Positions 1,357 to 56,676 are shown, counted from the stretch's first letter. The stretch: DNA of 58,331 nt from Oscillospiraceae bacterium (GCA_015064545.1 SVSA01000002.1:1-58331), one strand, 5' to 3'. Notes: a model not told the origin generated them from the sequence alone. Program-made: numbers and translations.

Positions 1357-1537
1357 TTGGTGATATTGAAAAAACTATTGACAGAGATAACGATATATGC
1401 TATACTGATGATACAGAGAATCCCAAAAGGAGGCGAGTCCCATGTCCTGCGAGCATTTTTCCCGCGCGGCCCTGTATCTCGCCGTTTTTTCCTGACCGAA
1501 CCTTTGTGAACGGATGAGTGCAGCGGCCGCGCGGCGG
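1357..1537 (+). repeat. IR1 copy A: 181-bp promoter+leader segment, inverted partner at 55958-56136
   Basis: Manual alignment to the reverse complement of 55958-56136 gives about 7 differences (5 substitutions, 2 single-base indels). Confidence 0.9.
1378..1406 (+). promoter_or_regulatory. sigma-A-type promoter of the lectin/peptidase-lipoprotein operon
   Basis: TTGACA (1378-1383), 17-nt spacer, TATACT (1401-1406). Confidence 0.6.
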
Positions 1538-1584
1538 TACGTTGCACTTTTGTTTTTGAAACCGATTCACTTTGGGAGGTTATT
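1412..1584 (+). promoter_or_regulatory. ~170-nt structured 5' leader with two terminator-like hairpins and a possible anti-terminator pairing
   Basis: ggcgag(1432-37)/ctcgcc(1478-83) followed by T6. cccgcgcggcc(1461-71) is complementary to ggccgcgcgg(1525-34). Hairpin 1518-1547 is followed by ttttgttttt. Real SD gggagg lies before the ATG at 1585. Confidence 0.4.
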
Positions 1585-3207
1585 ATGAAATTCAAACAAT
1601 GCCTTCTCTTCGTTCTCACCCTGTGTCTGCTTCTCAGCTCTACCGGCTTCTCGCTTCCGGTTTCCCCGGCGCTTCCACCCGAAGAACCCCTTATCCCGCT
1701 TGCGCCCCCTGCGGCTTCTTTGGTCAGCTTAAACAAATCGTCCCTCTCGTTAAGCATCGGCGAAGGTGCCTTGCTTGTCGCTACCAGCGATTACAATATC
1801 AGTTGGACATCCAGTAACACAGCGGTTGCCACGGTCAATAACGGCTATGTGGTCGGACATTCCGCCGGCACCGCCACCATCACGGTCGTGATCAGCGACT
1901 TTGTCACCGAGGAAGGACTTACCAGCGATACCTGCACCGTTACGGTAGGATCTACACCGATTTTTGAAAACGGCACCTACTTCATTGAAAATATGGCAAC
2001 CGGGAAATATATTGACATTGAAGGCCCTTCGATTGCCAACGGCGCCATCATTCAGCAATGGTCGTTGAGCGGAGGAAATTCGAGAAAATGGAATCTGGTT
2101 TTGCAAAACGATGGGTATTACGCAATAAAATCGTATATGTCCCTCAAATACATGGCAATTGCTACCGACAGTACCACAGCAATCAAGCAATATTCCTCGA
2201 TCACGAACAACGCAAAATGGAGCTTCATGAAAACCGCACGCGGAAGCTATGTGCTTATCGCCAAAAGTTCTGAAAGCACCCTTAAAGCCTTAGCCACCCC
2301 CTCAACAACATCGGGAGACGGTGTCAACCTGACACAATTCGTATATTCAAATAATACATCGCTGAACGACGAGTGGGCTTTGACGCGAATGTTACCGTTA
2401 AGTGGGTATGAATTGGAGTATGGGACGGATGATTGGGAATCGTATAAAAACTATAACAACTGTTACTCATATGCAATTAACTGTAGACTTTGTGGAGATA
2501 GCTGTTTTTCCCAATTGGTGTATTACCCGCAACAACCGGGAGACTATTCGGGAAACATTTATGAAGAAACCACAGAAACCTGTTTAACCGCATCAGTTTC
2601 CGAGGATTTTGAGACTTATTTTGGTGTTGCGGGGAAGTTTTTTGAAATTGGACGGTACACGCCCTGTCCCGTCGGCGCCTATAAAGTTGCACTTGTCATT
2701 GACGCAAATCGCCCAGACTACCACTGGTATCGCCAAAATAGTAACGGACTGTGGTCCCACAAACCTGGACGCAATAGTGTCACGAATCTCGATTGTTCCG
2801 AAAGGCTCATTATTGACCCTCTGCTTGCCGACAGGAACAGCACGGATTCTGTTCCACCCGGAACCACAGATTACAGTACTTTTATTGCATACTTTGCCGT
2901 TTTCCCATGGAACTATGTCTGCGACAACATCACAAATCCTAGTTCGATACAATCTACCTCTTTATTAGCTGCGACAGAAAGCATCCAAAGTAATACAATC
3001 TCTGCTTTCTCTTTGAATAATATCTCTATTGGAATGACAAAAGAGCAGGTTTGTAAAATCCTTGACTCAGAAGGATTTTCTGCTGGTAGCGGTATATACG
3101 CATATGATTATAAATTGGCAGATGGAACAGTTGTGTTAATACAGTATCGTTACAATTCCAGTAGAAAATGTCTCGAGCTTAGCGATATTTACATTAAGGA
3201 GAATTAA
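1585..3207 (+). CDS. secreted multidomain protein: signal peptide, Big_2 Ig-like domain, ricin-B-type lectin, Cys/His peptidase-like domain, C-terminal lipoprotein-type module
   Basis: N-terminal hydrophobic signal. Big_2-like LSLSIGEGALLVATSDYNISWTSSNTAVATVNNGYVVGHSAGTATITV. QxW-like triplets (QQW, KQY, TQF) in a beta-trefoil-sized stretch. NCYSYA ... DYHWYRQNSNGLWSHKPG (Cys then His order). Terminal GMTKEQVCKILDSEGFSAGSGIYAYDYKLADGTVVLIQY. Confidence 0.75.
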   Translation: MKFKQCLLFVLTLCLLLSSTGFSLPVSPALPPEEPLIPLAPPAASLVSLNKSSLSLSIGEGALLVATSDYNISWTSSNTAVATVNNGYVVGHSAGTATITVVISDFVTEEGLTSDTCTVTVGSTPIFENGTYFIENMATGKYIDIEGPSIANGAIIQQWSLSGGNSRKWNLVLQNDGYYAIKSYMSLKYMAIATDSTTAIKQYSSITNNAKWSFMKTARGSYVLIAKSSESTLKALATPSTTSGDGVNLTQFVYSNNTSLNDEWALTRMLPLSGYELEYGTDDWESYKNYNNCYSYAINCRLCGDSCFSQLVYYPQQPGDYSGNIYEETTETCLTASVSEDFETYFGVAGKFFEIGRYTPCPVGAYKVALVIDANRPDYHWYRQNSNGLWSHKPGRNSVTNLDCSERLIIDPLLADRNSTDSVPPGTTDYSTFIAYFAVFPWNYVCDNITNPSSIQSTSLLAATESIQSNTISAFSLNNISIGMTKEQVCKILDSEGFSAGSGIYAYDYKLADGTVVLIQYRYNSSRKCLELSDIYIKEN

Positions 3208-3208
3208 G

Positions 3209-3898
3209 ATGAAGTGGATTACTTTTGTTCTTTTATTGCTATTTATATTTAACGCCTGCACCATCCCCCATGCGAGCACCCCTGCCGGATCCGATGATAC
3301 TATGGATGAAACATCGTCGGCCGAAACCACCGACACCGAAGCAGACACAACCGATCGTGTTCCTGTCACAGATGAATACGTTGTCTTACTGAAGGACTAC
3401 GAAATTTCGCTATCGGATTTGGAAAAAATTTCTGAAGGGATGCCCATTGATCGCGTCAGTGAAATTCTCGGCTCAGAAGGCTACTGTTTTACCAGCGGTA
3501 TTTACGGGTATTACTATCGGTTAAGTGACTACACAAGAATTGTCTTTAGTTATCGCCTCAACACTGAGGGGCATTATCTTGAACTCAGAGACTATGAAAT
3601 TGTACCGTTCATGGAACTGCGCTCCATTCAAAAAGGAATGACTTGGGAAGAGGCTTTGGAGATACTTAACAACCTTAGCGGCCAAGCCTATACGGTTGAA
3701 AATTCACCGGGGACATCACTACTGTTTCGGTCGAATCGTATGGACACGGACAATTGGGCGGCTTCCGTCTCGCTTCATTCGGGAAGCAATACCATCGAAA
3801 GCATTGAGCTATCTTGGAAGAACGGAGACGAAAGCGTAACTTGGCCCTTATCCGTAAGCGCGGATGGGTACTTCTCGTTTATGAGAGCAGATCAATAA
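3209..3898 (+). CDS. lipoprotein with two copies of the GMT..EV..LG module
   Basis: Lipobox-like LLFIFNAC. Modules GMPIDRVSEILGSEGYCFTSGIYGYYYRLSDYTRIVFSY and GMTWEEALEILNNL. Starts 2 nt after the upstream stop. Confidence 0.7.
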   Translation: MKWITFVLLLLFIFNACTIPHASTPAGSDDTMDETSSAETTDTEADTTDRVPVTDEYVVLLKDYEISLSDLEKISEGMPIDRVSEILGSEGYCFTSGIYGYYYRLSDYTRIVFSYRLNTEGHYLELRDYEIVPFMELRSIQKGMTWEEALEILNNLSGQAYTVENSPGTSLLFRSNRMDTDNWAASVSLHSGSNTIESIELSWKNGDESVTWPLSVSADGYFSFMRADQ

Positions 3899-4027
3899 AA
3901 ACTGCCCTCCACCGTTTTATCGTGATTCCTCCCCATAAATCTCCCTCTTGCGCCACCCTCCTTTGAAAAATCGTAATAACCGAAACAGCGAATTGATAGT
4001 TTCTCAAGTTTTGAAAGGAGCCCTATC

Positions 4028-4471
4028 ATGAAACACTATGTTCGATTTCTCATCCTTCTGCTGCTATTATCTGCCCTGTTAACCGGTTGTCACTCTTCTC
4101 TCGGAGTAGAATCTCCCGCTACGACTACCGCCAATGATATCCCCGACACCTCTTCCGAAACAGACAAAAACATTTTTGACAAAATTAAAATGCTCAACGC
4201 CTCCATGCGTGGAAGCGATGTGATCGAGCTTCTCGGGGAAGATTATGAGCTTCTATGCGATGGAAAAACGGAAAGCGTCTTGACCTACGCTCTTTTTGAC
4301 GAGTCGTATCTGTTCGTTGTCTTGCGCGGCCACCCCCAATATACTACTCCCTATTGGCAGCAAATCCCCCCTCTTGTTTCACTTGAAGAGCAGTGTATTC
4401 GTGCACTATATCTTAACGGAAAAGCGCTCCAAACCGACGAAGCCGGCAACTTCCTTCTTCCTGACGCATAA
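4028..4471 (+). CDS. small lipoprotein (module family); the 3' end lies in repeat IR2
   Basis: Lipobox LLTGC. Degenerate module SMRGSDVIELLGEDYELL. C-terminus ALQTDEAGNFLLPDA is identical to the C-terminus of the 55133-55906 product. Confidence 0.65.
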   Translation: MKHYVRFLILLLLLSALLTGCHSSLGVESPATTTANDIPDTSSETDKNIFDKIKMLNASMRGSDVIELLGEDYELLCDGKTESVLTYALFDESYLFVVLRGHPQYTTPYWQQIPPLVSLEEQCIRALYLNGKALQTDEAGNFLLPDA

Positions 4472-4574
4472 AATCCCGCGCGAAAGGAGCCCTCATGAAA
4501 CACCATATTCTCTGTCTCCTCTCCCTGCTTCTCCTGCTTTCGCTTGCGGCCTGCACAAACCCGCCCGGATCCGG
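4424..4574 (+). repeat. IR2 copy A: 151-bp segment spanning a gene 3' end, the intergenic RBS and the next gene's signal peptide; inverted partner at 55030-55180
   Basis: By manual alignment there is a single mismatch (gcgcgaaagg vs gctcgaaagg). The flanking coding sequence diverges sharply. Confidence 0.9.
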
Positions 4575-4944
4575 CACAACCGAAACAACCGATGAAGCGG
4601 TTGAGAAAATGACAGAAGACTCCGACTTTCCCTATCCCATTACCGATGCCGAACTACTCAAGCAAGTCAAGGTGGGGATGACCTACGGCGATGCCATGGC
4701 TCTCGGCCTTGATATGGGTCTTTGCTATTCGTCAGGCTCCGGTTCACCCGTCCACTATTACGGCTCTGACGGAAACAAATATTCCTTTATTCTCGAAAAC
4801 GCCGTTGTTGATATGGAATCGCTGGAATCGACATCGATTGACGATCTGCTGCACAGCGAGGCTCCCGACCTGTCGGATCCCTATAAGCGTCCTTATTCCT
4901 GGTGCACCATTATTGACATTCAGGTTACCTCCTACAAAAAATAA
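4495..4944 (+). CDS. small lipoprotein (module family); the 5' end lies in repeat IR2
   Basis: MKHHILCLLSLLLLLSLAACTNPPGSG is identical to the N-terminus of the 54462-55109 product. Module VKVGMTYGDAMALGLDMGLCYSSGSGSPVHYYGSDGNKYSF. Confidence 0.7.
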   Translation: MKHHILCLLSLLLLLSLAACTNPPGSGTTETTDEAVEKMTEDSDFPYPITDAELLKQVKVGMTYGDAMALGLDMGLCYSSGSGSPVHYYGSDGNKYSFILENAVVDMESLESTSIDDLLHSEAPDLSDPYKRPYSWCTIIDIQVTSYKK

Positions 4945-4992
4945 TGTGAGTAGCGGGCGATCTATGATCGCCCCTACCGAAGTGTTTTCTTA

Positions 4993-5022
4993 AGCGCCGC
5001 TTATTGAAGCGGCGCTTTTTTC
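4993..5022 (+). terminator. Rho-independent terminator
   Basis: gcgccgctt/aagcggcgc stem followed by T6. Confidence 0.8.
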
Positions 5023-5137: not shown

Positions 5138-7045
5138 ATGGCCGGGTTACACAACAAACGCCGCGCACTCTTGCTTTTGGTGGATATCCTTTGCTTTTTT
5201 GTTTGCTTTACGGTGGCAGAGTTTATTGCTTATATCTTTAAAATTCCGTTTTCGCTGTCGCACTATCTGATTTGTGCTGCGGTCTTTTTCGTGCTGATTT
5301 TTGGCCTGCGCTTTGTGACACGCGTTTATGATCATGTGTGGCGCTATGCCAATTCCCGTACCTACTTAACGATGGTCGCCGCCGATGCGGTTGCCGGACT
5401 GACGGCTGTTGGCATTTTACAGCTTTTTGGCGTGAATCCCAGCTTTTGGTTCAGCCTTTGCCAGGCCTTTGGCGTGGCAGCCTCCTGTGACATTCTGACT
5501 TTGGTGGCGCGGTTTGTTTATCAGACCTTTTTTGGCGAAAAGCATCCGCTGAATACCGAAAATAACAAGATTGGCGTTGCGATTGTCGGCGCCGGACAGA
5601 CCGGCGTGTTTTTGGCACAGGAGCTTCTGTCGGGAGCGCACAGTCATTACCGTCCCATTTGCTTTGTCGATGTGGATAACGATAAAATCGGAAACCGTAT
5701 TCTCGGCTTGCGGGTATACAGCGAGGAAGAAATTCGCCAAAAGCTGAAGGTGTTACCGGTGCAGGAGATTTTCATTGCACTTTCGCACGTCAGTGCGGCG
5801 GAAGCGAGACGGCTTCACGATTTCTATTCGGCATCGGGCTGCAAAATCAAGCTTTACGATTTTCCGATGAATGATATGAACGAATCGGTAAAAAACGCGA
5901 AAAAGGTTATCCGTGAAATCCGCATTGAGGATCTTCTTTTCCGCGAAAGCGTGGCGGTGGCCGATGATAAGACGAGGGCCTTTTATGCCGGTCGCACCGT
6001 TATGGTGACGGGATGCGGTTCCATTGGTAGCGAGCTTTGCCGACAGATCGCGGCTTGCGATCCCATGCAGCTGATTTTGGTTGATATTTATGAGAATAAT
6101 GCGTATGACATTCAGCAAGAGCTGATCCGATTGTATGGAACGTCGCTGAATCTTGCCGTTGAAATTGCATCGGTGCGCGATCGCGTACGTATGGAGGCAA
6201 TTTTTGCCGCTTACCGTCCCGAGATTGTGTTCCATGCCGCTGCGCATAAGCATGTTCCTCTTATGGAGCATAGCTGTTGTGAGGCGATCAAGAATAATGT
6301 CTACGGTACGCTGAATACCGTAGAGCTGGCAGAAAAATATCATGTTCATAAGTTTATTCTGATTTCTACCGACAAGGCTGTCAACCCGACCAATGTGATG
6401 GGCGCTACCAAGCGTCTTTGCGAAATGATTGTCCAGAGTCGCTATGACAGTAAAACAACCTTTGCTGCCGTGCGGTTTGGTAATGTTCTGGGATCGAACG
6501 GCTCGGTGATTCCGCTGTTCCGCTCGCAAATTGCGGCGGGCGGCCCCGTTACGATAACCGATAAGCGGATTATCCGTTATTTCATGACGATTCCCGAGGC
6601 TTCGCAGTTGGTTATGCAGACCGGTGCGATGGCGCAGAGCGGCGAGCTCTTTGTGCTGAATATGGGAAATCCGGTCAAGATTCTTGACTTGGCCGAGAAC
6701 CTGATCCTTCTCTCGGGCTATAAGCCGTATGAGGAGATCGATATCAAGGAGGTTGGCCTGCGTCCGGGTGAGAAGCTTTATGAGGAGCTTCTGATTCGTA
6801 ACGAGGAAATGACGAAAACCTCCAATGACCGTATTTTTATTGAGAAGGACAAGCCTCTCAGTCGGGACGAGGTGGCCAAAAAGCTGAAAATTTTGGCAGA
6901 GGCCATGGCCGAATCGGCGGATACGCTGTGTCAGGATGCGGTTGTTACCGCGCTCAAGCAGGTAGTCCCCACCTTTATCGATCCCGAAACGGTGAATACC
7001 TCGGAGGAGACGCGGCGCGAGCTTCAAAAACAACAGAATGAGTAA
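5138..7045 (+). CDS. membrane-anchored polysaccharide biosynthesis protein, CapD/PglF/WbpM-type NDP-sugar 4,6-dehydratase
   Basis: N-terminal TM helices, two Rossmann motifs (GAGQTG, VTGCGSIGSEL), VFHAAAHKHVPLME and STDKAVNPTNVMGATKRLCE. Confidence 0.9.
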   Translation: MAGLHNKRRALLLLVDILCFFVCFTVAEFIAYIFKIPFSLSHYLICAAVFFVLIFGLRFVTRVYDHVWRYANSRTYLTMVAADAVAGLTAVGILQLFGVNPSFWFSLCQAFGVAASCDILTLVARFVYQTFFGEKHPLNTENNKIGVAIVGAGQTGVFLAQELLSGAHSHYRPICFVDVDNDKIGNRILGLRVYSEEEIRQKLKVLPVQEIFIALSHVSAAEARRLHDFYSASGCKIKLYDFPMNDMNESVKNAKKVIREIRIEDLLFRESVAVADDKTRAFYAGRTVMVTGCGSIGSELCRQIAACDPMQLILVDIYENNAYDIQQELIRLYGTSLNLAVEIASVRDRVRMEAIFAAYRPEIVFHAAAHKHVPLMEHSCCEAIKNNVYGTLNTVELAEKYHVHKFILISTDKAVNPTNVMGATKRLCEMIVQSRYDSKTTFAAVRFGNVLGSNGSVIPLFRSQIAAGGPVTITDKRIIRYFMTIPEASQLVMQTGAMAQSGELFVLNMGNPVKILDLAENLILLSGYKPYEEIDIKEVGLRPGEKLYEELLIRNEEMTKTSNDRIFIEKDKPLSRDEVAKKLKILAEAMAESADTLCQDAVVTALKQVVPTFIDPETVNTSEETRRELQKQQNE

Positions 7046-7208
7046 ACAAACGGAGAACTGCTATTGTGAAAATGGCGGTTTTCTGGTTTTGGGGTATCAT
7101 CACAATATGACATGGATTTTGTCGGATGTTCCATAGGAGAGTCTCTTACTTTTATGGTACAATACCGGTGTGAGAGCGTATCACAAAACATTTATAGGAG
7201 AAATCGTA

Positions 7209-9308
7209 ATGAAACATTATGGGCTTCTGATCATAGCGATATGTCTTGCCCTCGTTTGCGGCGGATGCCATGACGATGCGATTGAAAATGAGACCACAGA
7301 GACACCGGCGGTGAGTGATACCGAGCCCGCGATACCGGATCTTCCGGTTTCCTCGTTGGAGTCGTACCGTGTGGTCGTGGCCGAGGGGGCTTCGGATGCT
7401 GTCATGGAGGCAGCTCAGGCTCTGCGAAGCGGCTTGGCTTCTCATTTAGGCGTTTCTTCGATTGCGTTTTCGACCGACTATGAGTTCAAGGCCGGTGCGA
7501 TCGATACCACGCGGATCGATACGGAGATTTTAATCGGTATGACCAACCGCGATGAATCGCAGGCATTAGCCTCGATGTCGCTGGCACGTTTGGATTATGT
7601 GATTGACTATTCCTCTACCCGTATTGCCATTCTGGGCGGTTCGGAGGAAGCGCTTCTCAACGCGGTGCACGATTTTCTATCGCGGTATTGCACAGAGAAT
7701 GATCAGGTCATTCCGGGAGGATGGCAGTACTGCCATCGTCATGATAATGATGCCATAACGGTGGAGAGTGTACCGTTGTCGCAGTTTGTTTTGTCTGTTG
7801 GACAGGGTGTCAGCGAGAAGGCCGAAACGACATTGGTGGATACGTTATTCCGCCAATACGGTCTGGATTTGGCAAAGGTATCGGAAATCGATGCCGCCGG
7901 AGCGCGTCTTTCGCTGAGGCTTCATGAGACATGGGTACAGCAGTATGGTATTACGATTACGGCGAATACCGTTTGCCTTGAGGCATCGAGCGCACAGGCG
8001 CTGGAGGCGGCAGTCGATGCCTTCCTTACGTTGCTGACACAAAAAACGGCGCTGACCGCCGAAGACTCCGTAACCGAAAGCATGTCTGCGGTGCCGCCCT
8101 CCTATACCGAGGCTACGGTAGTCGACCGTTTGTTTGTCGAGGGTCTGACGCATAAGGATGCGCTCAGCTATGCGGTTGGCGAGGAAATCCTGTTCCGTTT
8201 CCGTGTGACCGACAGCGGAAAAACAACAGCACAGTATGCGTGCCCTCTCTTTACCTATACGGCCAGAGCCGATGATGGCCAGACATGGTCGGGACGTCTT
8301 GGCGGCGAGGGCGGCGAGATAACGCTTCGCTTTACCTTGAAGAAGCCCGGGCATATTCAGGTGTTTGTTAAGGCATGTGATGCGAACGGTAACGAAATCC
8401 CTTCGATCATCGGACTGAACGGCGGTGCCTGTGCCGGCTTTGAGGAGATTACGACCGTCAAAGAGGAGCCGGATGACTTTTGGGAATTCTGGCAGAAGCA
8501 GCTGAAGGAGCTGGAGGATGTGGCGCCGACGCTAATTGCCAAAACCGAGGTAAAAGGAAAGAATCCCTCCTTCTACTGTTACGATATTCGGATTCAAACC
8601 AACGATACGCCGGCTTCAGCCTGGCTTACCATTCCGAAAAATGCCGAGCCCGGTATGCTGAAGCTCAAAATGATCTATCAGGGGTATGGACAAAACGACC
8701 CGATTCTGGAGTTCAATCCCGGCTACATTACGGTCAGCGTGAACTCGCACAGCGTCGAGAACGGACGCGATAATGCTTATTACAGTCAAGTAGTTCCCAA
8801 CAATTTTGGCTTTCATCTTTCCGAGTATACCGATCCTTCCCGCGCCTATTTCCGCAATATGCTCCTTCGTGATGTGCAAGCCTTCCGCTTTGCCAAGACA
8901 CTGCCCGAATGGGACGGAGAGACAGCGGTGATCAGCGGCATCAGCATGGGAGGATTTCAGTCGATCGCTGTGGCGGCGCTTGAGCCGGGATGCACGAATT
9001 TGAATACGCATATTACCTGGATGTGTGATGTTGGCGGCAGAACGGATGGACGGATTGCGGGCTGGCTACCGCCATACACCGATGCGCTTCTCTATTTTGA
9101 TACCGTATATTTTGCGTCGCGTGTTACGGCGAAAACGAATCTGACGGCGGGTCTTGCTGATCCTACCTCAATGCCCTGCGGCATCACCGCGTGCTATCTT
9201 GCGATTCGCGGCGAGAAGACGCTCACCTTCCTGCAGAAGGCCACACACAGTACCGCCCTTTCGGTTTTGACGCCGGAGTATACACGAAGTGCTCCGGCGG
9301 CAGAATGA
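7209..9308 (+). CDS. lipoprotein with a C-terminal CE7-like acetyl-xylan esterase/cephalosporin-C deacetylase-type alpha/beta hydrolase domain
   Basis: Start moved to the Met preceded by aggaga. Lipobox LVCGGC. PDDFWEFWQKQLKEL, GxSxG as GISMGG, then GLADP...ATH near the C-terminus. Confidence 0.75.
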   Translation: MKHYGLLIIAICLALVCGGCHDDAIENETTETPAVSDTEPAIPDLPVSSLESYRVVVAEGASDAVMEAAQALRSGLASHLGVSSIAFSTDYEFKAGAIDTTRIDTEILIGMTNRDESQALASMSLARLDYVIDYSSTRIAILGGSEEALLNAVHDFLSRYCTENDQVIPGGWQYCHRHDNDAITVESVPLSQFVLSVGQGVSEKAETTLVDTLFRQYGLDLAKVSEIDAAGARLSLRLHETWVQQYGITITANTVCLEASSAQALEAAVDAFLTLLTQKTALTAEDSVTESMSAVPPSYTEATVVDRLFVEGLTHKDALSYAVGEEILFRFRVTDSGKTTAQYACPLFTYTARADDGQTWSGRLGGEGGEITLRFTLKKPGHIQVFVKACDANGNEIPSIIGLNGGACAGFEEITTVKEEPDDFWEFWQKQLKELEDVAPTLIAKTEVKGKNPSFYCYDIRIQTNDTPASAWLTIPKNAEPGMLKLKMIYQGYGQNDPILEFNPGYITVSVNSHSVENGRDNAYYSQVVPNNFGFHLSEYTDPSRAYFRNMLLRDVQAFRFAKTLPEWDGETAVISGISMGGFQSIAVAALEPGCTNLNTHITWMCDVGGRTDGRIAGWLPPYTDALLYFDTVYFASRVTAKTNLTAGLADPTSMPCGITACYLAIRGEKTLTFLQKATHSTALSVLTPEYTRSAPAAE

Positions 9309-9345
9309 ATCGTCAGAGAGAAGGAATGCCAAGGAGGATCATGAC

Positions 9346-10620
9346 GTGTCAAACTTATTAAACGACTTGAAGAAGGCTTCAGCAAAACCCGCATGCCCGT
9401 TCTATACCGAGGCAAAGCCCCAGGGTCGGCTCTTTGTCGAGGGAACCCCGGATAAGGATGCCCTTAGTTATCAGGTAGGAGAGGAGATGCTCTTTACCTT
9501 CCGCCTGACCGACAGCAAGCAGCTGTCCTCGGTATATGCCTGCCCGACCTTTTCCTGGAGCGCGAAGGCCGATGACGGACAAACCTGGTCGGGTGTGGTC
9601 TCGGGTGAGGAAGGGGTGGCAGCCCTTCGCTTTACCCTTACAAAACCGGGATATCTCTATGTTTCGGTCAATGCACAGGACGACAAGGGAGCGAATATCG
9701 CTTCGGTGACCGGCTTTGTCGGCGGCGCCTGTGTCGGCTTTGAACAGATCCAAGCGGTCAAGGAAAAGCCGGATGACTTTTGTGCCTTCTGGCAGACTCA
9801 GCTGGCGGCCCTCAACGGTGTTGCTCCGATACTGATCTCCAAGGTGGAGGTCAAGAGCGATAACGCCGACTTCTATTGCTACGATATCCGTGTGAAGAGT
9901 CACGATGCGGCGGCACCGGTTTCGGCAGTTATGACCTATCCGAAGAATGCCGAGCGCGGATCGCTGAAGCTCAAAATGTTCTATCACGGCTATGGCAATT
10001 ATACACCGATTGTACAGTACAATGACGGATATATCACCGTCAGCGTCAATTCGCACAGCATTGAAAACGGGCGCGAGGATGCTTATTACCAGCAGCTGCA
10101 GCAAACTATCCTGAAGAACTTCGGCTTTGCGGATGGCGATTATGTGGATCCTGCCAAGGCTTACTTCCGTGACATGATCCTACGTGATGTCCAAGCCTTC
10201 CGCTTTGCCAAAACGCTTCCGGAATGGAACGGCGAGGATGTTCTGATCGCGGGAGGCAGTATGGGAGCCTTCCAGTCGATTGCGGTGGCGGCTCTTGAGC
10301 CGGGATGTACGCTGTTGAATCTTGCCATCGTTTGGATGTGCGATGTCGGCGGCCGTACCGAAGGACGTATTGCCGGATGGCTCCCGGCCTATTCGGACAA
10401 TCTTCTGTATTTTGACAGTACGAGCTTTGCTAAGTATATCACCTGCAAGACAGGCATTACGGCAGGGTTGGCCGATCCGATTGCCGTTCCCTGCGGTATT
10501 ACCGCGCTGTATCATAACCTTGCTTGTGAAAAAACGATTAGCTTTATTCAGAGTGCGACCCACAATCTGGAGGCGTATGTGGTAAAGACAGTGTATCATC
10601 GAAGCTTCGATAAGATATAA
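9346..10620 (+). CDS. CE7-like esterase, tandem paralogue of the C-terminal two-thirds of the upstream gene
   Basis: Collinear similarity from LFVEGTPDKDALSYQVGEEMLF to the end, with GGSMGA. Start placed at an in-frame GTG 7 nt after aaggagga; the ATG at 9289 is the alternative. Confidence 0.7.
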   Translation: MSNLLNDLKKASAKPACPFYTEAKPQGRLFVEGTPDKDALSYQVGEEMLFTFRLTDSKQLSSVYACPTFSWSAKADDGQTWSGVVSGEEGVAALRFTLTKPGYLYVSVNAQDDKGANIASVTGFVGGACVGFEQIQAVKEKPDDFCAFWQTQLAALNGVAPILISKVEVKSDNADFYCYDIRVKSHDAAAPVSAVMTYPKNAERGSLKLKMFYHGYGNYTPIVQYNDGYITVSVNSHSIENGREDAYYQQLQQTILKNFGFADGDYVDPAKAYFRDMILRDVQAFRFAKTLPEWNGEDVLIAGGSMGAFQSIAVAALEPGCTLLNLAIVWMCDVGGRTEGRIAGWLPAYSDNLLYFDSTSFAKYITCKTGITAGLADPIAVPCGITALYHNLACEKTISFIQSATHNLEAYVVKTVYHRSFDKI

Positions 10621-13570: not shown

Positions 13571-15190
13571 TTAATGAATATAAATACCGTCGACGACATA
13601 GCCTGATACATCGAAGTCCATTCTGTAAGCGATGATGACGGTACTGCCATCATTGCAGTAATACAGATAAGACGATGAAGTGCTGGCGGAAGGATTTGCG
13701 ATTGGCCCCGGCGCTTGTAAAATATCAAAGACCTCCGACATTGTCATGCCGGGCTTGATTTGATCGAACAGTTGAGGGTCAAAAAAACGCTCGGGATCGG
13801 TCAGTTCTCGTCCGGGAAGTGCAAAATATCCGTGGCTGTCTATCGCAAGATACTGCATCTTTGTCGTATTCGTTGTGGTCAGATAAATGTGGGTTATGAC
13901 AGGGTTCTCGGTTGGCTCGCGCGTAGGGCCGAAGACAATGTTAACCGTGGTTTTCCCAATAAGGCATTTTGAAGAACCAACGTAAGTGTCGACAGTGGAT
14001 TGAGTGGAGGCATCAAATGCAGGTAGCTTCTGAAGGGTGAAGGAATATTCATGCTTCAGATATGTCTTTGCCTCAGACCAAGACATGCCGTAACGAAGCT
14101 TTTCTAAATAGGTTAAGTCGTCCTTCGATTCCGTAATATCCGGGCTGGTTTCGGGCACAACGTAATAGCCTTTGGTGTCGATTTCCAACGGTTCATTGTT
14201 GAGCATCACATAGGCTACGAGGGAAAGGGATTCTTTATGGGAGGAGTCGGACGTTATGCCGGGAATATACAGGATTTGAATGGTCAGGATTCGACCGTCA
14301 GTCGTGGGGTAAACATAGATGTCAGGTTCGGTTATGACTCCCCGGGAGAAGCTCAGACCCTTTGAACCGAGAAGATCAATAACCTCACCCCAAAGCATGT
14401 CGATGGAAATCTGTTCAATAACCGAGGGATCGACAGCCGGTGCCGGCTTCTCGCGCGAAATGGTGCAAGGCTCGTTAATACCTGAATAACCATCGAGTAT
14501 GACGGTGCTTCCGTCATCACCCCAAAATATCGGCACATAACGACCGCTTAACAAAGAGTATCCGCCACCTCCGAGAATGGTGAGCATTTGTTTCATGGTC
14601 ATGTTTTCCTCGAGCATCTCGAACAAACGATGATCGACAAACTGAATGGCAAAAGGCTCACTGAGTTGAATGATCGGGGCATCCGGATCGAATGGGGCAG
14701 TCGTGACGATGCCATCTTCGTTGGGCGGTGTAACCACCGGGGGTTGTGTCTCTTTGGTGATCAAGTTCTTTTCGCAGACCGTTCCGGCATAGGTTGTGTT
14801 CTTGGGGCAGAATATGATGCAATAATGATTTCCGTTATTGCCGTGATACAGCCACCGATTACCATTGTCAAACTCATACCCTTGGCTTCCGATGACCTCG
14901 GCGACCTCTTCCTTGGTCATGCCTGTTTTTACTTTGTCAAAATCCTCATTCGTAATGAAGAAAAAGCCCGATTCTTCTGAGGGTGTTGTGGTTTCGGGTA
15001 CGCCGGTATCGCCCGGTAAGGGTTGCCTCGGCAACAGGGCGGGGGCCACGATCATGGCAAGTAAGAACGTTCCAATCGCAATGGCCATAGCGCCGCCCGA
15101 AAAGAGGGAATGAATTTTGTTTTTTCGTTCGCGATAGCGATTGCGACGGGCAAAAAGCTCCTCGCGGATCGCAGAAACCGATTGTTTCAT
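13571..15190 (-). CDS. single-pass membrane protein, putative anti-sigma factor; ectodomain of ~5 lipoprotein-type modules
   Basis: 4-nt ATGA overlap with the upstream ECF sigma gene. ~33-aa basic cytoplasmic N-terminus, one TM (AMAIAIGTFLLAMIVAPALL). Modules GMTKEEVAEVIGSQGYEF, NMTMKQMLTILGGGGYSLLSG, DMLWGEVIDLLGSKG, GMSWSEAKTYL, GMTMSEVFDILQAPG. Confidence 0.6.
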   Translation of the reverse strand: MKQSVSAIREELFARRNRYRERKNKIHSLFSGGAMAIAIGTFLLAMIVAPALLPRQPLPGDTGVPETTTPSEESGFFFITNEDFDKVKTGMTKEEVAEVIGSQGYEFDNGNRWLYHGNNGNHYCIIFCPKNTTYAGTVCEKNLITKETQPPVVTPPNEDGIVTTAPFDPDAPIIQLSEPFAIQFVDHRLFEMLEENMTMKQMLTILGGGGYSLLSGRYVPIFWGDDGSTVILDGYSGINEPCTISREKPAPAVDPSVIEQISIDMLWGEVIDLLGSKGLSFSRGVITEPDIYVYPTTDGRILTIQILYIPGITSDSSHKESLSLVAYVMLNNEPLEIDTKGYYVVPETSPDITESKDDLTYLEKLRYGMSWSEAKTYLKHEYSFTLQKLPAFDASTQSTVDTYVGSSKCLIGKTTVNIVFGPTREPTENPVITHIYLTTTNTTKMQYLAIDSHGYFALPGRELTDPERFFDPQLFDQIKPGMTMSEVFDILQAPGPIANPSASTSSSYLYYCNDGSTVIIAYRMDFDVSGYVVDGIYIH

Positions 15191-52163: not shown

Positions 52164-54206
52164 TTACCAGAAGAAGGGGTAGGGGCGGTCGATAATCTTA
52201 TGGGTAAACGCCATCAGGTCGGGGGAAATGTCGAACCACTTAGCGCTCGCGTTTTCTGTGAGATATTCGCCGTTTTCGTAGCGATTGCCCGAATCCCAGG
52301 TGGGATCCATGATGACCCATCGGTTCTCCTCGGCGAGATACGCTTCAATATGAACGTGGTTGCTCTCGGTTGTTTGCGCGTTATTCTCATCAATCGTGCC
52401 GGAGCCGGTAGAATAGGTGCTGACGCGGATACAGGGAATTCCCTGCGCTTGAATCAGATTGCCAAGGAGTGTGGCATAGCCATCGCAAACCGAGCGTCGC
52501 GTTTCGTAAACCTCGAGGGCAGAGAGCGAGAGCGAATCGCTTCGGCCATAGAGATAGTCATAATCGTAGTAGATATTTTCCGCTACCCACTTATTCAACA
52601 GGTAGAGCTTTCGATAGGTATCGGTTTCATCGCCCACGATCTCGTTGGACAGGTTACGGATGGTATCCGAAATCGTAAGGGACAGGCATTCGGAGGGATC
52701 GACCCATTGACGCTGGAGCGACAGGTTATGAGACAACACCGGGGACAGCCGGAACACGTATCCGTCCTCGGAGGGCATGACCGAAATTTCATGCCAGATA
52801 TAACTCCAGAAGTTGGATTCGCCGTTAACCTGCGTGAAAATCGACACGTAGGTTTCTTCGGTTACCCGGGACAGAGAGAGCTCGGTGTAGAAGAACTCGC
52901 CGCTCGTTACCGACACGAATTCATCCTCGAGATTCGAGGGGATTTCGCATCGGAGCCAGAGCTTGGTCAGGCCGTCTCGCTGAATTCGGCCTTGAATGGT
53001 CAGCGTATCGTCCGTAATGCGGAATTCCACGCAGTTGTTCGGATTGTTGGAGGTGATGATGCGGGTGGGGGAGCCATACAGTGAGGGATCGAAGTTGAGG
53101 ACTCCGATATTCTTGTCGTAGGTTCCCTTACAAACATCACAGGTATAGGTCAGGATGCCTGCCACGGTGGGCGTGGGCGCCACCTTGACGGTGTAGGAGG
53201 AATAGTGATGTCCCGTCGCGGGAAGAATCTCTACCGTACGGCTGGAGCAACGGGAGCAAGCGGTTGTTTTGCTGCCGTTCGTTTCGCAGGTGGCCTTGAC
53301 GGTGGTGGTTTGATAATGGTGTCCCTTGGCGGGGATGGTTTCGGTTTTGGAGAAGCTGCAACGGGAGCAGGTGGTTACCGTTTTTCCTGCGGTGGTGCAG
53401 GTAGCCTCGGTGGTTGTGGTTTTGGTATCGTGTCCCTTGGCGGGGATGGTTTCGGTTTGGGAGAAGCTGCAACGGGAGCAGGTGGTTACTGTTTTTCCTG
53501 TCGCGGTACAGGTAGCCTCGGTGGTTGTGGTTTTGGTATCGTGTCCCTTGGCGGGGATGGTTTCGGTTTGGGAGAAGCTGCAACGGGAGCAGGTGGTTAC
53601 CGTTTTTCCTGTCGTGGTACAGGTAGCCTCGGTGGTTGTGGTTTTGGTATCGTGTCCCTTGGCGGGGATGGTTTCGGTTTGGGAGAAGCTGCAACGGGAG
53701 CAGGTGGTTACCGTTTTTCCTGTCGCGGTACAGGTAGCCTCGGTGGTTGTGGTTTTGGTATCGTGTCCCTTGGCAGGGATGATTTCGGTTTTGGAGAAGC
53801 TGCAACGGGAGCAGGTGGTTACCGTTTTTCCTGCGGTGGTGCAGGTGGCTTCGGTGGTTGTGGTTTTATATTCGTGGGGACACGAGGTGTCAGCCGGTTC
53901 GGTGGTTTCGGGAGGTGTGGTATCCTCGGTGGTGATATTCTCGGTGGTTTCGGGAGGAATGGTATCCTCGGTGGTGATATCCTCGGCGGTCTCGGGAGGT
54001 GTGGTGTCCTCGGTGGTGATATCCTCGGCGGTCCCGGAAGGAATGGTATCCTTCTCTGAGGTGTCCGCCACGGTGGTTCCGGAGGCGGTAATGTCCTTGG
54101 TGGTGATATCCGCAGTCGTTTCGGGGACGGTTTCGGGCTGTAACCCACAGGCTGCAAGCGAGAGCAGGAGAAGCAGGGAGAGGAGATAAAGAAGATAGCG
54201 TTTCAT
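52164..54206 (-). CDS. lipoprotein with acidic Thr-rich repeats, seven Cys-rich ~37-aa repeats and a C-terminal transglutaminase-core (Cys-His-Asp) domain
   Basis: Start at MKRYLLYLLSLLLLLSLAAC (lipobox). Repeats TKTTTTEATCT..GKTVTTCSRCSFS.TE.IPAKGHD. Core RRSVCDGYATLLGNLIQAQGIPCIRV ... HVHIEAY ... WVIMDPTWD. Confidence 0.8.
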   Translation of the reverse strand: MKRYLLYLLSLLLLLSLAACGLQPETVPETTADITTKDITASGTTVADTSEKDTIPSGTAEDITTEDTTPPETAEDITTEDTIPPETTENITTEDTTPPETTEPADTSCPHEYKTTTTEATCTTAGKTVTTCSRCSFSKTEIIPAKGHDTKTTTTEATCTATGKTVTTCSRCSFSQTETIPAKGHDTKTTTTEATCTTTGKTVTTCSRCSFSQTETIPAKGHDTKTTTTEATCTATGKTVTTCSRCSFSQTETIPAKGHDTKTTTTEATCTTAGKTVTTCSRCSFSKTETIPAKGHHYQTTTVKATCETNGSKTTACSRCSSRTVEILPATGHHYSSYTVKVAPTPTVAGILTYTCDVCKGTYDKNIGVLNFDPSLYGSPTRIITSNNPNNCVEFRITDDTLTIQGRIQRDGLTKLWLRCEIPSNLEDEFVSVTSGEFFYTELSLSRVTEETYVSIFTQVNGESNFWSYIWHEISVMPSEDGYVFRLSPVLSHNLSLQRQWVDPSECLSLTISDTIRNLSNEIVGDETDTYRKLYLLNKWVAENIYYDYDYLYGRSDSLSLSALEVYETRRSVCDGYATLLGNLIQAQGIPCIRVSTYSTGSGTIDENNAQTTESNHVHIEAYLAEENRWVIMDPTWDSGNRYENGEYLTENASAKWFDISPDLMAFTHKIIDRPYPFFW
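53319..53874 (-). repeat. five tandem near-identical 111-bp coding repeats
   Basis: Unit starts (gtgtcccttgg) at 53319, 53430, 53541, 53652 and 53763. Two degenerate units continue to ~53170. Confidence 0.9.
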
Positions 54207-54348
54207 GCAGATGTCTACCTTTCTGTTGGATGTGATCGCTCGCATCAGCGATGGTGCGGGGCGCACGCCAAGTGTACGGCCGCTTAGCGAATGCCGCTGG
54301 GATCCCTTCCGCATCCGAACGGGGCGTTCCCATCGGTTTGACAAGAAT

Positions 54349-54378
54349 AGTATAGCACACATTCCCGGTGGATGGCAA
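54349..54378 (-). promoter_or_regulatory. sigma-A-type promoter of the transglutaminase-like lipoprotein gene
   Basis: On the minus strand: cTCTTGCCATCC, 18 nt, TATACT, then a ~135-nt leader. Confidence 0.5.
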
Positions 54379-54405
54379 GAGCATTTGCAAAAAAACAAAA
54401 GATTT

Positions 54406-54461: not shown

Positions 54462-55109
54462 TTATCGAACAATCTCTTCAACGAGCTCGTTCCGATAGCC
54501 GATAGCAACCGAACCGCCGTCCTTCAGCAGATAGGAAAAGCGAATATAACCGCTTCCTACGGGCAGACCGTCCGAATGAAGGAGGGCGATGACCTCCTCG
54601 CGGCTCATGCCGACGGTGATGGCATCAAAGTCCGAAAGCGCGAAGAAACGCTCCGGCTCACGCTCCTGCGCGTCCGGCAGAGCGTAATAGCCGTTTTTGT
54701 CACAGGGGAATTCAATACTGTCGTTGTTACTGTCGTCAGCAGGCTTCAGGCGCAGATCGCGGAGCACATAGGTGCGCCAAGCGGCGGCCGAATCGGTGCC
54801 TTTTTCCTTGTCGGTGTCGTAGAGGGCGGCAACGAGGCGTTGTCCGTTGACCTCATACGAAATCTCGGCAAAATCGGCAAAGGCGGTAAAGATCTCCTTC
54901 GGCTCACCGAGCAAGGCAACAACGTCATCGGCCGTCATGCCGTATTTCAGCTGTTCGATGTCGGCAAAGGCGGCGTAATCGGAGGGCGGGATGTCCTTTG
55001 TTTCAGCCTCGGTATCGGTTGTTACGACACCGGATCCGGGCGGGTTTGTGCAGGCCGCAAGCGAAAGCAGGAGAAGCAGGGAGAGGAGACAGAGAATATG
55101 GTGTTTCAT
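54462..55109 (-). CDS. lipoprotein with two GMT..EV..LG modules
   Basis: MKHHILCLLSLLLLLSLAAC. LKYGMTADDVVALLGEP and ITVGMSREEVIALLHSDGLPVGSGYIRFSYLLKDGGSVAIGY. Linker NGYYALPDAQEREPERFF resembles the anti-sigma DSHGYFALPGRELTDPERFF. Confidence 0.7.
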   Translation of the reverse strand: MKHHILCLLSLLLLLSLAACTNPPGSGVVTTDTEAETKDIPPSDYAAFADIEQLKYGMTADDVVALLGEPKEIFTAFADFAEISYEVNGQRLVAALYDTDKEKGTDSAAAWRTYVLRDLRLKPADDSNNDSIEFPCDKNGYYALPDAQEREPERFFALSDFDAITVGMSREEVIALLHSDGLPVGSGYIRFSYLLKDGGSVAIGYRNELVEEIVR

Positions 55110-55180
55110 GAGGGCTCCTTTCGAGCGGGATTTTATGCGTCAGGAAGAAGGAAGTTGCCGGCTTCGTCGGTTTGGAGCGC
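55030..55180 (-). repeat. IR2 copy B (inverted partner of 4424-4574)
   Basis: See IR2 copy A. Confidence 0.9.
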
Positions 55181-55906
55181 GACTCCGTCGAGCGTGACGC
55201 TATCGGCCCAATATGTCTGAACAACGATGGTCATTCCTGCTTCGGTAGGCTTCCGATAGGTTGTGAGCGAAAGGGCAATTTCCAAAAGAGAGTTGTCCGC
55301 AAGACGATAGGCAACTTGCGTAACTGCTTTTCCGCTGCTGGTAATGGAATCGAACTGCTCCCCAAAGATTTTTTTAATCGAAGCGAAATCAGAGCTCGTG
55401 GATAATTGAGCAATATCGGAGGATGTTGCCGAGGAATGCGGGATGACCGACGGCGTGGCGGTTACATTTTCCGGCTTAATGGTGTAAAAACCATTTTCGT
55501 CGGTTTCGAGGACGACGTCATCAAGAGAAATGGATTCAACCGAGAAGAGATTAACATAAGAATCAATCGGATCCTGATAACTTAGCTCGGGAATGGACGG
55601 ACGGCTAATTTTGACATACAGCTTTTGGAAATTCGACAAGGTGTAGCACAGAATGTCGCCGTAAAACTCGCCGCTTGGCACGTTGACTCCCGATTCACTA
55701 GAAACGAGGAAATAGTGATTGCCAAGCAGCGCGTTTGCCTCGTTCCAAGCCATGCCGGGCTTGATTTTGAAAACGGCATTGGCAATTACATCTTCGGCAA
55801 GGACAGTGTCCTCGAATTTGGCGAGATTGTCTGTGGTCGGCTTAACACACGCGCCGAGCACACTGAGCGTTAAAAGAAGCAGGAGAAAAAGGCAAAACCG
55901 TTTCAT
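55133..55906 (-). CDS. lipoprotein (module family)
   Basis: Start at MKRFCLFLLLLLTLSVLGAC. IKPGMAWNEANALLGNHYF. C-terminus ALQTDEAGNFLLPDA. Confidence 0.7.
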   Translation of the reverse strand: MKRFCLFLLLLLTLSVLGACVKPTTDNLAKFEDTVLAEDVIANAVFKIKPGMAWNEANALLGNHYFLVSSESGVNVPSGEFYGDILCYTLSNFQKLYVKISRPSIPELSYQDPIDSYVNLFSVESISLDDVVLETDENGFYTIKPENVTATPSVIPHSSATSSDIAQLSTSSDFASIKKIFGEQFDSITSSGKAVTQVAYRLADNSLLEIALSLTTYRKPTEAGMTIVVQTYWADSVTLDGVALQTDEAGNFLLPDA

Positions 55907-55957
55907 GTTAGTTCTCACTTTCCGATGGTATGGAATGGATGGCAAGGGAGGAGGTGT

Positions 55958-56136
55958 CCGCCGCGCGGCCGTTGCACTCATCCGTTCACAAAGGTTCGGT
56001 CAGGAAAAAACGGCGAGACACAGGCCGCGCGGGAAAATGCTCGCAGGACATGGGACTCGCCTCCTTTTTGGATTCTCTGTATCATCAGTATAGCATATAG
56101 CGTTATCTCTGTCAATCGTTTTTTCAATATCACCAA
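55958..56136 (-). repeat. IR1 copy B: promoter+leader segment (inverted partner of 1357-1537)
   Basis: See IR1 copy A. Confidence 0.9.
56087..56115 (-). promoter_or_regulatory. sigma-A-type promoter of the right-hand lipoprotein operon
   Basis: On the minus strand: TTGACA, 17 nt, TATACT (same as the promoter at 1378-1406). Confidence 0.6.
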
Positions 56137-56166: not shown

Positions 56167-56676
56167 ATGCCGATGATACTTGGTGAAATCAAGCGCTATC
56201 TCCGCGACAATAACGCCATCCGCGTCAGCCGCTCGATGCGCGATCTGGCCTACCGCGCACTCCGCCTCCGCGAGCAGCTTGCCGCCGAACGAAACAGCGA
56301 GCCGACGGTGGAGGATATTGTGGCGGCGATGGCGGCGCAGGGGGAGCCGCACCGCAAAGAGGAGGTTGTGACGGCGCTGGAGGCCATTGCGCCGACCGTG
56401 TCGCTGTACGATCCGGTCTACGGTGACGGCGGCGGGGATTCGTTATATGTCATGGATCAGGTGCGCGATGAATCGGCGGGCGAGGATGCCTGGCTGGAAA
56501 GCATTGCGCTGAAGGAAGCGATGAAAACCCTTTCGCCCCGCGAAAAGACGATTCTCGGTATGCGCTTCTACCGCGGCAAAACACAGATGGAGATTGCCGC
56601 CGAAATCGGCATCTCGCAGGCGCAGGTGTCGCGGCTCGAAAAGGGGGCGCTGGCGCGTATCCGCAAGCTGATGTAA
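56167..56676 (+). pseudogene. sigG: 5'-truncated SigG/SigF-family sporulation sigma factor (end of region 2 through region 4 only)
   Basis: PMILGEIKRYLRDNNAIRVSRSMRDLAYRAL..., YVMDQVRDE, GKTQMEIAAEIGISQAQVSRLEK match the C-terminal ~165 aa of SigG. The upstream in-frame sequence has a stop at 56098 and no region 1.2-2.3 similarity. Confidence 0.75.

Follow-up and report, generated by a model that had tools for sequence, protein, structure and literature searches.

A candidate secreted lectin-enzyme toxin and its BamE-like lipoprotein partners in a gut Oscillospiraceae genome

Why would a gut bacterium encode a secreted, lectin-bearing enzyme candidate and, directly behind it, lipoproteins related to that protein's own C-terminal end? 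The question is raised by four consecutive genes in a 58,331-nt stretch of DNA from Oscillospiraceae bacterium (GCA_015064545.1, SVSA01000002.1:1-58331), the whole of which is here called the window. Our answer, to which we give a probability of about 0.7, is that the block at 1357-5017 is an acquired polymorphic toxin-immunity operon, in which a Sec-secreted, lectin-guided envelope toxin (A540) would be paired with BamE-like lipoprotein immunity. An earlier note on this DNA had proposed an exported enzyme with a surface-tethered inhibitor; an interbacterial polymorphic-toxin frame, which that note did not put forward, fits the locus better than a generic exo-enzyme.

Features of the block, all on the plus strand, are the following:
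1357-1537, promoter and 5' leader (promoter scan; blastn duplicate at 55958-56136, minus strand)
1585-3207, A540, 540 aa, secreted multidomain toxin candidate (open reading frame (ORF), Pfam, homologues, domain boundaries)
1789-1899, immunoglobulin (Ig)-like Big_2 core of A540, residues 69-105 (Pfam PF02368, E 7.6e-6, 26.2 bits against a cut-off of 22.8)
1966-2370, ricin-type beta-trefoil of A540, residues ~128-262 (Pfam PF14200, RicinB_lectin_2, E 3.9e-16, in two stretches)
2374-2913, Cys/His domain of A540, residues 264-443 (conserved columns, AlphaFold2 (AF2) model, family search)
2461-2463, codon of the putative nucleophile C293; 2722-2724, H380; 2758-2760, H392
2914-2985, disordered linker of A540, residues 444-467 (AF2 predicted local distance difference test score (pLDDT) <50, model residues 193-213)
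2986-3204, C-terminal BamE-like module of A540, residues 468-540 (identity to B229 module 1; hhalign)
3209-3898, B229, 229 aa, predicted cognate immunity protein (ORF, FNAC lipobox, hhalign, Foldseek)
3392-3604, B229 module 1 (match to the A540 C-terminus; hhalign)
3605-3895, candidate degenerate second unit of B229 (21-residue hhalign alignment, tandem relatives, Foldseek)
4028-4471, C147, 147 aa, lipoprotein with LTGC lipobox, module membership unproven (hhalign; blastp to F282, a lipoprotein of a second locus)
4495-4944, D149, 149 aa, lipoprotein with LAAC lipobox (hhalign; leader common to E215 of the second locus and P0121 of a metagenome)
~4645-4803, single divergent BamE-like module of D149 (hhalign score)
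4992-5017, intrinsic terminator (11-bp stem with seven GC pairs, then a T-run)

The start codon of B229 lies 2 nt past the A540 stop. The top promoter-like site of the region (1378-1406; -35 TTGACA, 17-nt spacer, extended -10 TGCTATACT; promoter scan score 11/12 with TG) precedes the genes and the terminator follows them, indicating that the four genes are one operon. A terminator-like hairpin (1531-1545) is present between the leader and the A540 start. By inspection, A540 begins with a Sec-type signal peptide, and lipoboxes are canonical in C147 and D149 and atypical in B229. ORF calling, Pfam and alignment thus bear out the parts that the earlier note had listed, namely four ORFs, signal peptide, Big_2 and ricin domains, Cys and His motifs and a C-terminal module.

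The enzyme candidate and its C-terminal module

The region that follows the lectin belongs to a large family. A word-indexed search with the Cys/His domain returned 163 homologues, and an exhaustive profile search, counted in cluster representatives at 50% identity, returned 5,458 at E<=1e-3, of which 1,301 reached E<=1e-30. The homologous segment is ~175 aa long, and in the 150 best of the 5,458 it is almost always C-terminal. Two motifs stand out in A540, NCYSYA at residues 292-297 and DYHWYRQN..WSHKPG at residues 378-395. Across 106 aligned homologues, C293, H380, H392, D341, D378 and D403 are invariant or nearly so, confirming the Cys-then-His arrangement seen earlier, and further near-invariant columns are N292, Y296, G319, K367, W390-S-H392-K-P-G395, P412 and Y430. 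A540 keeps every one of these residues, which argues that its active site is intact.

The AF2 model of residues 262-540 has a mean pLDDT of 83 and a predicted template-modelling score of 0.72, with a pLDDT of ~90 over the Cys/His domain. C293 (model C32) opens helix 32-36, and H380 (model H119, strand 117-124) and H392 (model H131, strand 129-131) are in adjacent strands, a predicted layout that fits papain/NlpC-P60-type hydrolases. The papain or transglutaminase fold proposed in the earlier note is compatible with this layout. Foldseek gave weak matches in the Protein Data Bank (PDB) that are mostly papain-fold (USP36, Josephin-type deubiquitinases, MepS/Spr, a C39 domain), with none of them reaching significance. 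Assignment of the domain to NlpC/P60, USP or C39 was dropped for that reason.

Sequence searches place the domain outside named families. Neither A540 residues ~264-443 nor its last ~70 residues have a significant match in Pfam or NCBIfam, and for the Cys/His domain these include no match to NLPC_P60, CHAP, the C39 or C10 peptidase families or Transglut_core. Sequence and profile searches of the PDB were empty even at E<=10, and significant similarity to an established member of the papain-like fold was not found. By sequence the domain is linked, weakly, only to Pfam DUF7689 (best E 6.7e-6; 17 of 81 members match), a family for which a literature search returned no papers. All sampled homologues are named 'hypothetical protein' by their sources, and a plasmid collection gave one weak and uninformative Rhizobium match. 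In BFVD, three uncharacterised viral proteins match significantly (M1HB16, with E 5e-12 and TM 0.67, F2Y2U4 and A0A1V0SF80), one of them a Hokovirus protein. The domain is also present in P0017, P0021 and P0031, on contigs of 367-529 kb, and in P0078, P0087, P0097 and P0117. These viral and large-contig proteins have Cys-rich N-termini, basic tails or low-complexity repeats.

The end of A540 returns in the genes behind it. Its residues 468-540 are 45% identical to residues 66-131 of B229 (E 4e-12). Each candidate copy was compared by hhalign with the module family harvested from other genomes, window sequences removed; on this scale, shuffled sequences score 9±2 (maximum 17) and an unrelated negative control 18.5. 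The A540 C-terminus and B229 module 1 are clear members (both with a probability of 98% and a score of ~60), and D149 is a divergent one (92.6%, score 33, shuffles 9.7±2). The second half of B229 aligns over 21 columns only, at the 'GMT' helix motif (88%, score 29); tandem two-module relatives and BLIP-length Foldseek alignments of a low-confidence model suggest that it is a degenerate second unit. C147 scores 21.7 (45.6%), near the unrelated control. A jackhmmer search had linked full-length C147 to the module family, but the link was driven by the signal peptide, and queries with the mature part found nothing. Downstream of A540 there is therefore a single clear copy of the module, in B229, and a divergent one, in D149; the second half of B229 counts as a degenerate unit, and C147 as unproven. 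The earlier description of three lipoproteins with one or two copies each holds for B229 module 1 and, in divergent form, for D149, and is not established for C147 or for a full second copy in B229.

Profile and fold evidence at the family level identify the module as a member of the BamE/SmpA_OmlA-like superfamily. Pfam BamE (PF04355) is matched by 19 of the 52 lipoproteins encoded downstream of the enzyme in other genomes (best E 7.8e-7), and some others match DUF3862, DUF4309 or DUF3192; taken alone, A540 and B229 reach only E 0.05-0.2. The module in the A540 model is a helix (225-232) and three strands, at pLDDT 73-90. The B229 model is of low confidence (pLDDT 50), and we used only its secondary structure and coherent Foldseek matches, which are to a BamE-like lipoprotein (9vnj_B, E 7e-4), to BamE (probability 0.9-0.97) and to BLIP and BLIP-I over ~175 columns. 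Neither the operon proteins nor the neighbouring lipoproteins in other genomes match Pfam BLIP, and the BLIP resemblance is structural only. The BamE/BLIP likeness suspected from the sequence thus stands. Homologue searches with B229 gave just 1 and 7 database matches because the module is short and fast-evolving.

Gene linkage and delivery architectures

Is the pairing of enzyme and module particular to this window? A module hidden Markov model (HMM), seeded from enzyme-attached modules and iterated over the ORFs of 78 genome loci that encode the enzyme domain, found 72 module-bearing ORFs. The enzyme ORF has its own C-terminal module in 19 of 87 cases (17 of 85 once the window and an identical JGI copy of it are set aside), and a module gene lies directly downstream on the same strand in 40 of 87 (38 of 85). 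Of 51 module ORFs that lack the enzyme domain, 39 start within ±120 bp of the end of an enzyme gene. Before iteration, the seed HMM detected the module in 41 of 2,697 ORFs of enzyme loci and in none of 6,462 ORFs of control loci from related taxa (Fisher p ~1e-22). Most downstream partners in other genomes carry lipoboxes. In loci where a module is not detected, the next gene still usually encodes a small lipoprotein of another sequence type. The linkage thus holds in many genomes, and the earlier note's reading of an exo-enzyme with a surface-tethered inhibitor is supported, inhibition being the predicted part; the findings that the note named as contrary, such as homologues unlinked to module lipoproteins, were not made.

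The modules could instead be anchoring or ligand-binding units for an envelope lipid or glycan, through which the toxin docks, with the lipoproteins as decoys or unrelated proteins. Classical BamE is reported to bind phosphatidylglycerol, a multi-copy module surface protein in the window (X538, described below) has no enzyme partner, and similarity within cognate pairs is inconsistent across loci. Yet the module gene holds a strict position directly downstream of the enzyme gene, BLIP and BamE-like immunity proteins are protein binders, and the non-BamE lipoproteins that substitute at the same position fit immunity better than a common ligand. We regard a docking role as improbable.

Similarity within cognate pairs deserves separate treatment. 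At 8 of 13 loci the module of the cognate immunity protein is among the first eight of 60, and at A540/B229 it is the top one, but own modules mostly cluster with the own modules of other enzymes. The cognate signal is real and inconsistent, and is not taken as proof of co-evolution. Repeated local duplication was considered as the source of the similarity and was rejected because own modules group with one another.

The distribution of own modules follows the export route. Among enzyme ORFs with an own module, a signal peptide or lipobox was detected in all 17 whose N-terminus is intact; in Rhs and PAAR-like forms the own module is missing. The pattern suggests an inhibitor built into those toxins whose folding takes place at the producer's envelope, and by this analysis the cis module is possibly an autoinhibitory prodomain.

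The family also has the makeup of polymorphic toxins in the sense of Zhang et al. 2012, with one C-terminal domain behind varied N-terminal trafficking and adhesion regions. In A540 and its closest relatives, the Cys/His domain is C-terminal to Big_2, ricin or CBM96 lectin regions. Elsewhere, it ends an FG-GAP and RHS-repeat protein (L035) and a PAAR-like DUF4280 protein from a soil metagenome (P0051), which has a secreted module protein encoded 64 bp downstream. The domain also occurs in a protein with YD repeats by source annotation (P0080). In a class of ~740-800 aa, common in Bacilli and Mollicutes-like metagenome-assembled genomes (MAGs), a trypsin/V8-type serine-protease region (LVTAGHC, GGQSGSP) is encoded 5' to the domain, and some homologues consist of a bare signal peptide or lipobox followed by the domain. 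The small immunity-type gene directly downstream co-varies, and both cassette recombination and orphan immunity-type genes are found.

Two loci illustrate the range. In L039 (5046-7871; Oscillospiraceae, CP091722.1), a truncated-looking enzyme-domain ORF of 162 aa is followed by five consecutive module-bearing lipoprotein or secreted ORFs, a run that looks like an orphan immunity array. In Anaeroplasmataceae phage NatCom_34063 (L197, PV036447.1, 5288-8319), a secreted 732-aa protein with serine-protease motifs and the Cys/His domain (43% identity) is encoded right after the holin and is followed by a 272-aa non-BamE lipoprotein. If Mollicutes-like hosts truly lack peptidoglycan, the target of the Cys/His domain there is not the wall.

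These contexts bear on a further alternative, in which A540 is a host- or diet-directed secreted protease or amidase, a lectin-guided cysteine-hydrolase zymogen with the module as prodomain, and B229 mops up premature activity at the surface of the producer. Such an enzyme would suit the carbohydrate-binding domains (ricin, Big_2 and CBM96) of A540 and its closest relatives, Sec-dependent export with no dedicated secretion system, and the acetyl-xylan-esterase-like enzymes among the neighbouring genes. The homology of B229 to A540's own module has a parallel in Spi, an analogue of the SpeB propeptide, and Bfi inhibitors are predicted lipoproteins (PMC2873492). It sits less well with Rhs/FG-GAP, PAAR-like and YD scaffolds, which deliver antibacterial toxins, with downstream partners that are polymorphic and come in arrays (five in L039), or with a pair that is cargo beside a phage lysis cassette and, here, part of an accessory island. 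We consider a host- or diet-directed role unlikely, though it deserves to be kept in view.

An accessory island and a second lipoprotein locus

GC content is 0.39-0.46 across ~1800-4400, versus 0.52-0.55 in the flanks. Upstream of the block lies a transketolase-family gene with a 93% identical counterpart in an Oscillospiraceae MAG (L081), the closest relative. There the CapD-like gene begins 161 bp after that counterpart, and the four-gene block is therefore absent. Neither the enzyme nor the module turned up near this flank in any of 80 related loci. With its own promoter and terminator as well, block 1357-5017 is an accessory island that a gut Oscillospiraceae/Eubacteriales bacterium has acquired horizontally.

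Island status also bears on a housekeeping explanation, that A540 is an autolysin-like wall- or surface-remodelling enzyme regulated or localised by the BamE-like lipoproteins, as MepS is by NlpI. The weak structural matches do include MepS/Spr and other NlpC/P60 peptidases, the 12-residue spacing of H380 and H392 equals that of the catalytic histidines of MepS, and the genome has many BamE-like surface proteins, including X538, which is not linked to a toxin. A housekeeping enzyme is expected to be conserved and syntenic, whereas this operon is low in GC, is absent from the closest relative and occurs at the locus in none of 80 related genomes; the family's architectures are polymorphic and the pair is also phage cargo. 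Wall remodelling is, of the explanations weighed here, the one we find hardest to credit. All three alternatives fit the Rhs, PAAR and phage contexts, the polymorphic partners and the island status less well than the toxin-immunity reading does.

Parts of the island recur at a second locus of the window. The features of this locus, all on the minus strand, are the following:
55981-52164, second locus, with the three lipoprotein genes F282, E215 and G744 in that order
55133-55981, F282, lipoprotein, likely true start near 55909 (module HMM E 1.2e-4)
54462-55109, E215, lipoprotein with two modules (module HMM E 6.5e-19; Pfam BamE E 8.8e-7)
52164-54398, G744, lipoprotein, likely start near 54206 (C-terminal Transglut_core, E 1e-15)

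Several stretches are common to the two loci. Bases 1357-1537 (181 bp) recur in front of F282 at 96% identity, and duplication of the promoter and leader before both lipoprotein operons suggests, from sequence, their co-regulation. C147 and the C-terminal half of F282 are paralogues (32% identity over 117 aa, blastp E 3e-10), D149 and E215 are 61% identical over their first 70 residues, and the junction between the end of C147 and the start of D149 is 94% identical to that between F282 and E215. A protein from an ENA metagenome, P0121, is a chimera of the D149 leader (compared over 4495-4570) and the B229 body: its mature part is 98% identical to B229 and its signal peptide and lipobox are those of D149 and E215 (MKHHILCLLSLLLLLSLAACTNPPGS). 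Recombination has thus occurred among these lipoprotein genes in related strains, and F282 and E215 may be orphan immunity-type genes.

The duplicated leader matches no Rfam family beyond sub-threshold chance matches, and its fold is unremarkable (z = -2.05). A sigma-factor-like ORF (56167-56676, plus strand) adjoins the second copy. G744 has five or more Cys-rich repeats of ~37 aa (TTTEATCT..GKTVTTCSRCSFS). In 33 other genomes, none of 34 transglutaminase homologues has a module neighbour, so the pairing of a G744-type transglutaminase with the module is local; a general pairing of transglutaminase-like enzymes with BamE-like lipoproteins was rejected on this count, and the set served as a negative control.

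Modules also occur apart from either locus. X538 (13571-15190, minus strand) is a 539-aa protein with an N-terminal transmembrane anchor, 4-5 BamE-like modules (Pfam BamE E 9.6e-11; module HMM E 8e-35) and no adjoining enzyme-domain gene. With six module proteins in 58 kb, or seven with C147, the module has expanded in this genome. Downstream of the island, a CapD-type polysaccharide biosynthesis gene (5138-7045) is followed by two adjoining AXE1 (acetyl-xylan-esterase-like) genes (7170-10620), the first with a lipoprotein-type leader; the AXE1 pair is ordinary glycan-metabolism context.

Proposed action and comparison with known systems

How would such an operon work? A540 is predicted to be exported by the Sec pathway and to bind glycans on the surface of target cells through its Big_2 and ricin-type lectin domains. 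Its Cys/His domain, probably a divergent papain-type fold with C293 as nucleophile and H380 and H392 as base and third residue, would then act on a substrate in the wall or at the outer surface of the cytoplasmic membrane, most likely a peptidoglycan stem peptide and possibly a lipid or surface protein. B229, anchored in the membrane of the producer, would shield it by binding and blocking the enzyme domain with its BamE/BLIP-like module. D149, and perhaps C147, may be additional or orphan immunity-type lipoproteins shuffled by recombination with the second locus, and the cis module of A540, on its disordered tether, might serve as a built-in inhibitor, or prodomain, until cleaved or displaced. 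The placement of the target follows from that of the predicted immunity: extracytoplasmic immunity implies an extracytoplasmic target. TelC/TipC and the BamE-like immunity proteins of Lipocone and related toxins are interpreted by the same logic (PMC12419801). A stronger version is tentative, and we rate it as rather doubtful: the cis module would be an immunity-derived prodomain that docks on the active site and keeps the toxin inert until cleavage or displacement, and the Cys/His domain would be the founder of a large papain-type family (>5,000 clusters) that acts outside the cytoplasm and is common to bacteria, phage and giant-virus-like proteins.

Several observations weigh against a toxin-immunity operon. 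The enzyme fold has no significant match in the PDB (Foldseek, best E 0.12, probability <=0.25). Enzymes that gut Clostridia direct at glycans or the host also typically carry lectin and Ig domains and a Sec signal. Only ~45% of homologous loci have a detectable module neighbour, and the own module, which resembles the cognate immunity module strongly at A540/B229, does so inconsistently at other loci. This genome also has abundant BamE-like modules away from toxin loci (X538, F282/E215). Finally, giant-virus-like homologues lack an adjoining immunity-like gene (L163), which indicates that the Cys/His domain is not intrinsically a toxin.

The locus matters for several reasons. Contact-independent protein weapons of Gram-positive gut anaerobes are poorly known, and this is a compact candidate system in which surface-located immunity proteins imply an envelope target. 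The Cys/His family has no name, structure or known chemistry, and finding its substrate would allow thousands of proteins from gut, soil, phage and giant-virus sequences to be annotated. The cis-fused, immunity-like module suggests a safe export route for envelope-active toxins in monoderm bacteria, and A540/B229 is a natural candidate pair of toxin and inhibitor in which to examine, at the level of structure, how an enzyme is blocked by BamE/BLIP-type units.

Several known systems resemble parts of this one. Type VI secretion effectors and their immunity proteins (Tae/Tai) are small papain- or NlpC/P60-type Cys-His enzymes that act on the envelope, with extracytoplasmic, often lipoprotein, immunity encoded next door, and a PAAR-like fusion of the Cys/His domain exists (P0051). 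However, solved Tae structures showed no significant similarity to the Cys/His domain in PDB profile and Foldseek searches, and the present system combines Sec export and lectins in a Gram-positive-type lineage. In BLIP (beta-lactamase inhibitor protein), as predicted for B229, a tandem of two small alpha/beta units blocks an active site, and the B229 model (pLDDT 50) aligns over ~175 columns; the enzyme partner here is unrelated to beta-lactamases, and BamE itself is an outer-membrane assembly factor.

SpeB/Spi, staphopain/staphostatin and Bacteroides Bfp/Bfi each pair a papain-type cysteine enzyme with a co-transcribed dedicated inhibitor, as is predicted for A540/B229. Spi and the prodomain of SpeB are homologues, as are B229 and the A540 module (PMC2873492). 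These enzymes differ in belonging to families C10 and C47, neither of which is matched by Pfam here, and in having host-protein targets; they are not polymorphic toxins. Their inhibitors have propeptide-like or lipocalin-like folds, and Spi and the staphostatins are cytoplasmic.

ABP systems (AbpT/AbpP/AbpI) are Sec-secreted, diffusible polymorphic toxins of Bacillota that use a protease in maturation (PMC13460014). In a subclass of the Cys/His family, likewise, the toxin domain is preceded by a fused serine-protease region. ABP systems have a BetaH domain, an S8 protease encoded by a gene of its own, immunity in the cytoplasm and nuclease-type targets inside the cell (PMC13460014), whereas the present operon has lectin domains, no S8 gene and three downstream proteins with signal peptides or lipoboxes.

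The closest likeness is to the membrane-anchored BamE-like immunity of envelope-targeting polymorphic toxins, described, on computational grounds as here, by Burroughs, Nicastro and Aravind (eLife 2025, PMC12419801). As presented in the passages on those systems, the immunity proteins are fast-evolving BamE-like units with a lipobox or transmembrane anchor, adjoin a secreted or lipobox toxin and are predicted to intercept it outside the cytoplasm, and the toxin partners belong to Sec/lipobox, PAAR and other delivery types. Membrane anchoring is also seen here, through LTGC in C147, LAAC in D149 and the atypical FNAC in B229. The partners named there are Lipocone (Min-Wnt, CapCone), colicin-M-like, VanY-like and papain-fold acyltransferase domains; the partner here is an unnamed Cys-then-His domain that lacks a Pfam model, and a Pfam scan of A540 gave no match of the Lipocone or ColM type, setting it apart from the toxins directed at lipid head groups. 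A BamE-like module in cis on the toxin, as in A540, is not mentioned in those passages. Only one lipoprotein immunity family was known to Zhang et al. 2012. This kind of system is already known, at least computationally, with the role of BamE-like immunity described in 2025, and the earlier note's view of an undescribed combination holds for the toxin family, which is unnamed, and no longer for the immunity half. What this locus adds is an unnamed toxin family, a lectin-Sec architecture with BamE-like immunity and an immunity-like module fused in cis to the toxin candidate.

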